Shown: positions 8,880 through 10,426, numbered from the stretch's first letter. The stretch is 26,042 bases of DNA from a virus (IMGVR_UViG_2724678986_000024:1-26042); one strand, 5' to 3'. Program-made: numbers and translations. The notes: generated from the sequence alone by a model not told the origin.

Positions 8880-9086
8880 ATGACTGAAGAACAAAAAAGA
8901 ATAGAGCGGGCTATTGAGTTGGCTTGTCGTTACGGCGGAACCGATGAAATGCATCATCTGCAATGGGTCGTGGATCAGATGGTAAGAGAACTTGCTGGAG
9001 AACGTTATGCACAGATTGTAGCTGATGCCACCAGCGGAGAAGATGGGCCTGATACTTACAAATGGAGTGTTGGGATCGCGCCTTAA
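8880..9086 (+). CDS. Hypothetical small protein (68 aa)
   Basis: ORF with GAGGA RBS directly downstream of hipA; no family recognised. Confidence 0.4.
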   Translation: MTEEQKRIERAIELACRYGGTDEMHHLQWVVDQMVRELAGERYAQIVADATSGEDGPDTYKWSVGIAP

Positions 9087-9187
9087 CAGCTGTCGGTCTG
9101 GGGGTGAAAACGTATTCTTCATTCAGCGAATTCCCAGGCTTCACATTAAGACTAAAGCGGCGGCCGCAGTAACGTAAGAGAAAATAA

Positions 9188-9598
9188 ATGGCTATTTTAG
9201 CAATCATTGCAGTTATCGCCCTGGGTGGGTACGCCTACGGATTTATTAAAACCCGTGAGCTGAGCGCTTTGCGTAAAGAAATGAAACTATACGTGGATCG
9301 CATGGAAGCGGCGGAGCTGGACTTACACGCAATCAGAAGTGTAGCGGAGCACCGGTTGCACGGTGCAGGTAAACAGTTTGCCGACCTTTACAGCCGTATC
9401 GACGGTGCAACTGTGACGCTGACACCCGAAGATCAGCTGTTACTGGCAACGATGCCATTTAATATTCAGGATGTAGAAGACATCGTAAACGAGCGCGGTC
9501 CAAAGACAATTAGCGGCCGTCCATTCTGGGAAGTTGAGCCAGGCCCGCATGATTATGAATATGGCCCGCAATATCCGTATTTCCCAGACCAGCGCTAG
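9188..9598 (+). CDS. Membrane-anchored hypothetical protein (136 aa)
   Basis: N-terminal hydrophobic helix (MAILAIIAVIALGGYAYGFI) then a soluble domain; stop lies 12 nt before the next gene. Confidence 0.55.
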   Translation: MAILAIIAVIALGGYAYGFIKTRELSALRKEMKLYVDRMEAAELDLHAIRSVAEHRLHGAGKQFADLYSRIDGATVTLTPEDQLLLATMPFNIQDVEDIVNERGPKTISGRPFWEVEPGPHDYEYGPQYPYFPDQR

Positions 9599-9610
9599 GA
9601 AGAGATCAAG

Positions 9611-10426
9611 ATGAGAGAGCCAAGACCACGCCATACCTTGCAGGTCATTCGTGTACCTTCTCTGGAGGTTCAGGACCTGGGGCTGACCAGCTTTGATAGC
9701 TGGCTTGACGAGCACGGGTATGACAAAACGAATGCCAGAAATAACCGTACCATCTGGGCGAGAGAAGGCGGATGGCATCTGAAACGTTGCAGAAATCTTG
9801 AAACTGGCACGGACGATTTCTGGTTTATCGCTTTCGATGGTAAAGGCGGGAAGATTTACCCGCTGAAAACCCAAAGAGACTACCGGGCTGCATATCGTAA
9901 GCTGGAAGCAGAAGGTTATGCGCCTGCGGTCATCGAGCAAATGACCACAGGCGCAGCATATAACCTGGCCTATCCACGTTCCACCCTAAAACAAGCTGAG
10001 ACGGCCACCAGCGAGCCAATTCGGAAACCTGACGTAGATATCCAGGGTGAGCACTGCGAGCGCGTAGTGACGCAACGTAGTGGCGTGGCACAGGGTAAAT
10101 TCAAAGCTCTGCTCATCGAGAATTTCGCAGGCCGTTGTGCGGTAACCGGTTGGGTTAATGGAGGTGTCCTGGATGCGGCACACATTGAACATGGAACCCG
10201 GTACAATCCGTCTAATGGCATCCTGATGACTCCAACAATGCATGCGCTGTTTGATGCCGATCTTATGGGCATAGATCCGGCCACCCTGACCGTTCATTTT
10301 AAGCCAGGCATTGAGGTGGGCGAGCTGTTTGAAGGCCGTAAAATCACACCGCTGGTGTACGATCTGGACTTAGAGCGGCTGGCCGTACGCTGGGCAGAAT
10401 ACCAGGGCCTTGCTCAGGACCAATGA
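9611..10426 (+). CDS. HNH-family endonuclease domain protein with unknown N-terminal domain
   Basis: C-terminal segment GRCAVTGW...LDAAHI...NGILMTPTMHALFDADLMGI matches the HNH nuclease signature as I recall it; N-terminal 150 aa unrecognised. Confidence 0.7.
   Translation: MREPRPRHTLQVIRVPSLEVQDLGLTSFDSWLDEHGYDKTNARNNRTIWAREGGWHLKRCRNLETGTDDFWFIAFDGKGGKIYPLKTQRDYRAAYRKLEAEGYAPAVIEQMTTGAAYNLAYPRSTLKQAETATSEPIRKPDVDIQGEHCERVVTQRSGVAQGKFKALLIENFAGRCAVTGWVNGGVLDAAHIEHGTRYNPSNGILMTPTMHALFDADLMGIDPATLTVHFKPGIEVGELFEGRKITPLVYDLDLERLAVRWAEYQGLAQDQ

Follow-up and report, generated by a model that had tools for sequence, protein, structure and literature searches.

Type IV restriction enzymes such as TagI, VcaM4I and EcoKMcrA, which act independently of nucleoside triphosphates, join a sensor domain to an HNH nuclease domain, EcoKMcrA being of the classical zinc-containing HNH type. 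In TagI the pair Ala228-His229, together with Asn245, His254 and an unusual metal ligand, Asp258, is needed for activity (PMC6212794). VcaM4I is laid out as a sensor (residues 1-147), a linker (148-178) and an HNH domain (179-309), and enzymes like it are orphans that have no methyltransferase and are often located in defence islands (PMC7897488). A combinatorial shuffling of sensors and nucleases has been reported for modification-dependent enzymes (PMC11037411). The Type IIS enzymes AlwI, BbrI and HphI (His-Me finger group 6) combine an HNH_2 domain with a separate recognition domain that is hard to predict (PMC5714182). Here we analyse three open reading frames (ORFs), orf68, orf136 and HNH271, at positions 8,880 to 10,426 of a viral stretch of 26,042 nucleotides (IMGVR_UViG_2724678986_000024:1-26042; the window). 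In these ORFs an earlier note, made from the sequence alone, had seen a membrane-anchored protein coupled to an HNH nuclease, next to hipBA, and a candidate for defence or abortive infection. The adjacent genes are evolutionarily independent. From sequence and model, HNH271 is predicted to be a two-domain nuclease encoded by a stand-alone backbone gene of IncHI-type conjugative plasmids. The combined reading, independent genes and an orphan sensor-HNH nuclease resembling those of Type IV, is the one towards which we lean on balance.

The physical description given in that note was borne out by ORF calls, hydropathy and Pfam: the ORFs and their coordinates, the single N-terminal transmembrane helix of orf136, the C-terminal HNH domain of HNH271, hipBA alongside, and the gap of 12 nt between the orf136 stop codon and the HNH271 ATG (9599-9610), which holds a GGAAGAG Shine-Dalgarno-like motif. 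Co-occurrence of the genes was assessed from the context of diverged homologues, tblastn of all window proteins against 29 loci, PLSDB-wide counts and an all-against-all comparison of neighbours. HipB, hipA, orf68, orf136 and HNH271 are found together only as one block of at least 94% identity (loci L001 and L019-L025), which represents a single evolutionary event and therefore carries no co-occurrence information. Relatives of HNH271 at 78-80% identity (L006-L012, L018, L026), set in IncHI1B/FIB-type backbones with hha, hns and a second HNH_2 paralogue, are accompanied by no homologue of orf136 or orf68. Both genes are also missing beside a relative with 61% identity over the N-terminal domain and 43% over the whole protein (L027), and beside those at 42% (L002-L005), which lie next to an integrase with a helix-turn-helix gene upstream. 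None of the 18 diverged HNH271 loci carries orf136, and none of the five diverged orf136 loci carries an HNH gene.

The plasmid counts agree with this picture. In PLSDB, orf136 occurs in 1,142 plasmids, every copy at 90% identity or above, and the N-terminal domain of HNH271 in 1,297, about 195 of these at 60-90% identity. Intact orthologues of HNH271 under purifying selection are present without orf136 in those approximately 195 plasmids and in integrative elements; since an orthologue of about 79% identity is under purifying selection where orf136 is missing, orf136 cannot be required as an immunity factor or as an activator. A toxin with its immunity gene would imply that the intact nuclease never stands without orf136, and intact copies without it were found. 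Neither protein matches a PADLOC model of a two-gene system, and orf136 and orf68 have no PADLOC match of any kind. It is very probable that orf136 and HNH271 do not constitute a conserved module. The coupling of membrane protein and nuclease did not survive: the earlier note had itself named failure of the two genes to co-occur elsewhere as the ground for abandoning it, and their co-occurrence is limited to one near-identical IncHI2 block. The other ground named there, a match of the HNH protein to a characterised restriction or homing enzyme with a known partner, was not encountered, and nothing was found pointing to abortive infection.

The adjacency arises, on sequence comparison, from a lineage-specific insertion 5' of a conserved backbone gene. 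DNA homology to HI1-type backbones covers 6169-6913 of the window (orf143 and the region downstream) at 88-90% identity, restarts at 9612, directly after the A of the HNH271 start codon, continues at about 75% identity and stops at the stop codon. From the gap in homology, 6914-9611, it follows that the 2.7 kb containing hipBA, orf68 and orf136 are lineage-specific cargo in a variable slot. In the IncHI2 ancestor the hipBA-orf68-orf136 segment was inserted directly 5' of the HNH start codon, and HNH271 is probably co-transcribed with orf136 in IncHI2 as a by-product of that event, which is no evidence that the two are functionally linked.

Among HI-type backbones, cargo varies in the slot that extends from orf143 (6161-6592) to the HNH271 start codon. 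It holds small ORFs only in L006 (5300-6000) and L018, and in L010-L012 an unrelated five-gene cassette (L010 2702-5997) whose products have 401, 90, 117, 163 and 75 amino acids; the four larger genes have no PADLOC match, and the 401-residue one has no Pfam match either. Divergence from the IncHI1-type backbone is uneven, orf143 and its flank being far closer than the HNH271 coding sequence (compared over 9612-10398), in which synonymous sites are saturated; this suggests an old allelic split or a recombinational replacement of the nuclease gene.

HNH271 is a maintained gene under strong purifying selection. Compared with the HI1 orthologue, pS is about 0.7, so that synonymous change is near saturation, and dN about 0.13, the ratio of nonsynonymous to synonymous change (dN/dS) being 0.04-0.07 in the N-terminal domain and 0.05-0.08 in the HNH domain. 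Residues 176-222 match the Pfam family HNH_2 (PF13391) with 30.6 bits against a cut-off of 21 (E 3e-7), and the same family is present in all full-length relatives. The AlphaFold model of the monomer, built from a 29-sequence alignment, has a mean predicted local distance difference test score (pLDDT) of 80 and consists of a compact N-terminal domain, a disordered linker and the HNH domain (pLDDT 76-94). Residues A190-H191, N202, H211 and D215 are invariant or at least 90% conserved in alignments of 9 and 29 sequences and lie in register with the essential set of TagI, A-H...N...H...D(+4). The solved structures nearest to the catalytic domain in fold searches were those of TagI, VcaM4I and EcoKMcrA.

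No methyltransferase is adjacent to HNH271 in IncHI2, IncHI1(B) or integrative-element contexts, the only M gene nearby being a 222-bp pseudogene fragment. Proteins of Klebsiella and Enterobacter (P0020 among them) combine unrelated N-termini with HNH domains that share 52-60% identity with the one in HNH271, and the second HNH_2 paralogue of the HI1 backbones has yet another N-terminus; hhalign of the N-terminal domain against P0020 and against the neighbouring HNH_2 paralogue revealed no relationship. An HNH domain placed on unrelated N-termini is the same modular pattern as that of the modification-dependent enzymes (PMC11037411).

The earlier note had been unable to place the N-terminal 150 residues, and so were we: they match nothing in Pfam, NCBIfam, PADLOC or PHROGs, and no PDB or fold match was obtained for the domain in searches made with the two-domain model. 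The domain is modelled at pLDDT 86-93 with the topology beta-beta-alpha-alpha-beta-beta-alpha-alpha-alpha. Among seven members sharing 44-58% identity, 27 positions are invariant, eight of them aromatic (W31, Y37, W49, W55, F70, W71, F75 and Y91). An exhaustive phmmer search of 1.84 billion cluster representatives found the domain in only about 10 clusters, and in five out of five long full-length relatives scanned (P0161-P0165, 426-540 amino acids) it is followed by HNH_2, which is present twice in one of them. Matches in giant proteins of 1,900-2,900 amino acids were rejected as repeat-amplified noise from Big_9/cadherin adhesin repeats, and scans of viral contigs gave no relative of this domain or of the orf136 family. 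The domain is a plausible new sensor, a candidate reader of nucleic acid or of a modification.

HNH271 is close to TagI/ScoA3IV (SRA-HNH, Type IV, PDB 6ghs) in its catalytic set and in the fold of the HNH domain, but its N-terminal domain is not an SRA/PUA beta-barrel, being predicted to comprise two beta-hairpins and five helices with no profile match. The sensor-linker-HNH layout and the overall size parallel those of VcaM4I (EVE-HNH, PDB 6yex), although in VcaM4I an EVE sensor of the PUA superfamily is joined through a helical auto-inhibitory linker, whereas in HNH271 the linker is predicted to be disordered and the candidate sensor is unrelated. The NEco domain of EcoKMcrA (NEco-HNH, PDB 6ghc) is built on a six-stranded antiparallel sheet (PMC7145662) and differs from the four predicted strands and five helices of HNH271, with which it has no sequence similarity.

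By analogy with these enzymes we propose the following mode of action for HNH271, which would most likely work as they do. Its HNH domains would dimerise and thereby form the cleavage site, and the N-terminal domain would recognise a feature of incoming DNA that is absent from the plasmid and from Dam+/Dcm+ enterobacterial hosts, most plausibly a base or backbone modification of the phage type. The protein would then cut near the recognised feature, and a methyltransferase or an immunity partner would not be needed. That HNH271 acts as a modification-dependent restriction nuclease has, in our estimation, a chance falling a little short of even. The further proposal that its N-terminal domain is a new kind of reader, for a DNA modification or for another feature of foreign DNA, making HNH271 the founder of a new Type IV family on the IncHI backbone, is put forward more tentatively and is rather doubtful.

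HNH271 is often disrupted in nature. Of seven species-representative genomes with the block, four have the gene interrupted at codon 143 (window 10039, within the linker), while orf136 there is 99% identical; this break is seen in L021-L024 and H42-H46. The insert (L021 6429-12372) comprises metal-resistance cargo, with a MerR-type regulator and a P-type metal ATPase, and a transposase of the IS110 family. Split genes are found in many Enterobacter and Citrobacter IncHI2 plasmids; in at least one record (NZ_CP042525) the half encoding the HNH domain lies about 10 kb beyond the break, and 333 of 1,164 PLSDB plasmid records (about 29%) have no contiguous copy. The protein database holds many clusters of HNH271 fragments, and the profile search with the N-terminal domain returned truncated fragments only.

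Four points weigh against the combined reading of independent genes and a modification-dependent defence enzyme: (i) the frequent disruption of HNH271 shows that any benefit is conditional; (ii) its PADLOC match is limited to the HNH region and to generic 'HNH' models (PDLC04132, E 2e-8, residues 127-223; PDLC03546, E 3e-3); (iii) the N-terminal domain matches no modified-base reader (SRA, EVE/PUA, NEco, SBD or winged helix) in sequence profile or in fold, the fold searches having been run with the two-domain model, in which weak matches of this domain may be hidden, so that modification dependence is argued from architecture and orphan nuclease status only; and (iv) the 12-nt spacing implies that orf136 and HNH271 are co-transcribed in IncHI2, where a functional link specific to the lineage may exist.

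The last point bears on the rival reading of coupled genes, in which orf136 and HNH271, with or without orf68, would be a dedicated two-gene module for defence or abortive infection, the membrane protein sensing infection or restraining the nuclease effector. A short gap on one strand implies an operon in IncHI2, and the pair is retained together in about 800 plasmids amid defence-like surroundings. All the joint occurrences, however, are copies of the one block, diverged homologues of either gene always stand without the other, the nuclease at 79% identity is under purifying selection on its own, and orf136 persists where the nuclease gene is split. Elsewhere orf136 homologues lie 5' of varied genes (SRAP, KAP NTPase), as though a single anchor served different effectors, but the gaps to these genes are 86-600 nt and the genes are functionally unrelated. 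A small transmembrane protein encoded just 5' of a cytoplasmic effector also gives the locus a superficial likeness to Kiwa (KwaA/KwaB) and Zorya. In two-gene systems of that type the genes co-vary across distant taxa, whereas orf136 and HNH271 co-occur in one plasmid lineage only, and no PADLOC two-gene model, those of such systems included, fitted either protein. Homologue contexts, tblastn at the 29 loci, PLSDB counts and neighbour comparison were all without independent co-occurrence, the two-gene module was rejected, and we regard it as very improbable. Tight spacing within one plasmid lineage is no evidence of a functional pair, and the candidate "new two-gene defence system" should be dropped.

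Taken as a single gene, HNH271 might still be an orphan nuclease that acts independently of modification, specific for a sequence or structure in the manner of AlwI and HphI, and used in plasmid competition or exclusion, DNA processing or establishment after conjugation. This would suit a conserved IncHI backbone gene near the hns/hha 'stealth' genes and an N-terminal domain unlike any known modification reader, and HNH_2, the Pfam family of HNH271, does include Type IIS enzymes with unpredictable recognition domains (PMC5714182). Those enzymes, however, have cognate methyltransferases and unmodified target sequences, whereas HNH271 is without a methyltransferase in the contexts examined, and unless host and plasmid were free of its sites, a sequence-specific nuclease with neither methyltransferase nor immunity gene would turn on both of them. 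The nearest structural neighbours, moreover, are all modification-dependent, and dispensability in about 29% of the plasmids is contrary to a core role in transfer or maintenance; we consider this explanation unlikely. A catalytically silent protein, acting mainly in DNA binding or regulation, or a decaying relic, might be suspected from the frequent splitting of the gene, the modest E-value to the HNH_2 model and the lack of a zinc-binding Cys4 set; it is made very unlikely by the retention of all catalytic residues, including the TagI-type Asp at H+4, by the low dN/dS of the HNH domain with synonymous change saturated, and by the pLDDT at which that domain is modelled. Least probable of all, and extremely so, is a selfish homing-type HNH endonuclease that spreads itself: the HI2/HI1 DNA homology does not reach beyond the coding sequence, both flanks being different, and the HNH half is common to phage proteins, but neither an intron, an intein or a free-standing phage slot with a cognate target, nor multiple copies or a variable position, was found.

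The product of orf136 is predicted to be an inner-membrane protein with a cytoplasmic helical hairpin, extending to about residue 103, and a conserved tail. Its single strongly hydrophobic segment (residues 2-20, mean Kyte-Doolittle 2.23) is helical in the AlphaFold model (pLDDT 67), where the transmembrane helix runs into a long helix (2-72), followed by a second helix (80-103) and a disordered tail. In the family alignment this tail is highly conserved and rich in Pro and Tyr (RGPKTIxGRPFWxVEP...YEYGPQYP). Basic residues follow the hydrophobic segment (K21, R23, R29, K30 and K33) and none precede it, so that by the positive-inside rule the C-terminal part would be cytoplasmic (N-out/C-in). 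No match was found in Pfam, PADLOC, NCBIfam, PHROG or PDB, the PDB profile search giving noise only (ubiquitin and coiled coils, E>0.1). The family is small and enterobacterial. Relatives at 85, 82, 62 and 44% identity have no HNH neighbour; their settings are a plasmid contig, after traI/dsbC, a chromosomal island, by a KAP NTPase, an IncFII plasmid, by an SRAP gene, and a phage-like contig, and the neighbour comparison showed orf136 to be the sole protein common to these loci. It is solitary cargo of mobile elements, namely conjugative plasmids, islands and a phage-like element, rather than a partner of the nuclease. The sole family match of orf68 is weak (phrog_23179, E 6e-4); about 90 diverged homologues are present in other plasmids (IncFII, Vibrio), with neither orf136 nor an HNH gene nearby, and orf68 is likewise an independent plasmid gene.

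The region is part of the backbone of large conjugative IncHI2-type plasmids, on which the gene order is ter operon, vWA gene, hipBA, the trio of ORFs and a UvrD-like helicase. The 1.7-kb segment is present in 287 E. coli records, nearly all of them plasmids, and in 1,164 PLSDB plasmids of 150-380 kb from Escherichia, Salmonella, Enterobacter, Klebsiella and Citrobacter. RefSeq plasmids annotate all three ORFs as coding sequences, two as hypothetical proteins and the third as "HNH endonuclease signature motif containing protein"; because of this annotation and of the strong purifying selection on HNH271, the ORFs are taken to be genes and not chance ORFs. The RefSeq plasmid used for annotation is 99.9% identical across window 1-13866. 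Scans for promoters and terminators gave signal no higher than background, the Rfam scan of 6500-12500 gave zero matches, and literature searches on the protein accessions and on IncHI defence or HNH turned up nothing specific.

Resistance to colistin and carbapenems and the multidrug resistance of typhoid have major carriers in IncHI2 and IncHI1 plasmids, and IncHI plasmids are the main vehicles of mcr-1, mcr-9 and other resistance genes. Thousands of clinical isolates contain backbone genes of these plasmids whose function is unknown. Should HNH271 be an active nuclease of the Type IV kind with a new sensor, it would shape which phages and plasmids enter plasmid-bearing cells, as a plasmid-borne barrier with possible consequences for phage therapy and for competition between plasmids in resistant Enterobacterales; the sensor would be a new reader module for modification-dependent enzymes, which are useful in epigenetic mapping. 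The features of the locus are collected in Table 1.

Table 1. Coordinates of the genes, predicted domains and prophage features in the window.
Feature	Position	Strand	Basis or remark
hipB	7193-7489	+	Pfam HTH_3, E 4.5e-15
hipA	7494-8819	+	Pfam HipA_C, E 3.6e-51; Couple_hipA, E 3.7e-21
orf68, small soluble protein	8880-9086	+	ORF with AGGA ribosome-binding site
orf136, single-pass membrane protein (predicted)	9188-9598	+	ORF, hydropathy, AlphaFold model
HNH271, 271-amino-acid HNH_2 protein	9611-10426	+	ORF, Pfam match
HNH271 N-terminal domain, residues ~5-120	9623-9970	+	Model, alignment
HNH271 inter-domain linker, residues ~121-156	9971-10078	+	Predicted disordered, pLDDT 49-56
HNH271 C-terminal HNH_2 beta-beta-alpha-Me nuclease domain, residues ~157-265	10079-10405	+	Pfam, model
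orf141, downstream neighbour	10680-11105	+	N-terminal signal or lipobox-like sequence
Prophage integrase	14052-15071	-	Prophage also has a Cox-type repressor region
Prophage gpA-like replication endonuclease	19623-22490
Prophage ParM	22567-23526
Prophage portal gene	24964-26010	-

HipB and hipA, directly 5' of orf68, are a predicted type II toxin-antitoxin pair. About 1.1 kb 3' of the trio, at approximately 11559-11780, the matching RefSeq plasmid is annotated with the fragment mentioned above, the N-terminal part of a Type I M-subunit pseudogene. With hipBA, this fragment and a GajB-like UvrD helicase, the surroundings are moderately defence-like, and to that extent the defence-island context proposed in the earlier note stands, without linking HNH271 to orf136. 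The neighbourhood is compatible with a defence role for HNH271; as a defence candidate HNH271 is credible alone, with its Type IV-like catalytic domain, no methyltransferase and defence-like neighbours, and not as one half of a coupled module. In Enterobacter (L002 8661-12306), the relative at 42% identity lies at the edge of an integrase-bearing element, by a Lamassu-like set of CTD7, MC3 and LmuB_C, a setting that is a defence-island association for the HNH271 family.

On HI1-type backbones the second HNH_2 gene, coding for 236-291 amino acids, is located 0.5-0.8 kb 3' of the HNH271 orthologue and has an unrelated N-terminal region (L010 7640-8515; L006 7380-8090); IncHI2 keeps just a 112-amino-acid remnant of it (L001 20316-20654). 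That two neighbouring sensor-HNH genes differ in their front domains suggests that the ancestral backbone carried a small arsenal of nucleases. Downstream of HNH271 in the window, orf141 is most hydrophobic over residues 4-22 and has a lipobox-like motif, ILGC; scans of Pfam, NCBIfam, PADLOC and PHROG gave it no significant match, and it is specific to the IncHI2 block, its tblastn matches being confined to loci that carry the block.

The UvrD-family helicase of the IncHI2 backbone (679 amino acids; L001 16663-19553) matches the PADLOC models GajB and 'RTasHel' with E of about 1e-51. It is translationally coupled, through a 4-bp overlap, to a protein of 284 amino acids that has no Pfam or PADLOC match, and no GajA is present; the two may be an uncharacterised helicase-based defence pair. 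In the window this helicase gene is interrupted by a P2-like prophage (13852-26042), which is 99.6% identical to prophages normally found beside pdxB on E. coli chromosomes. The helicase of 679 amino acids in pCombat11I9-1 corresponds to an ORF of 476 amino acids in the window (12463-13893; truncated helicase 12463-13866). Plasmid homology and phage homology share 15 bp (13852-13866), a possible attachment core. Either arrangement, an IncHI2 plasmid with an integrated P2-like phage or a junction of plasmid and chromosome, is unusual.

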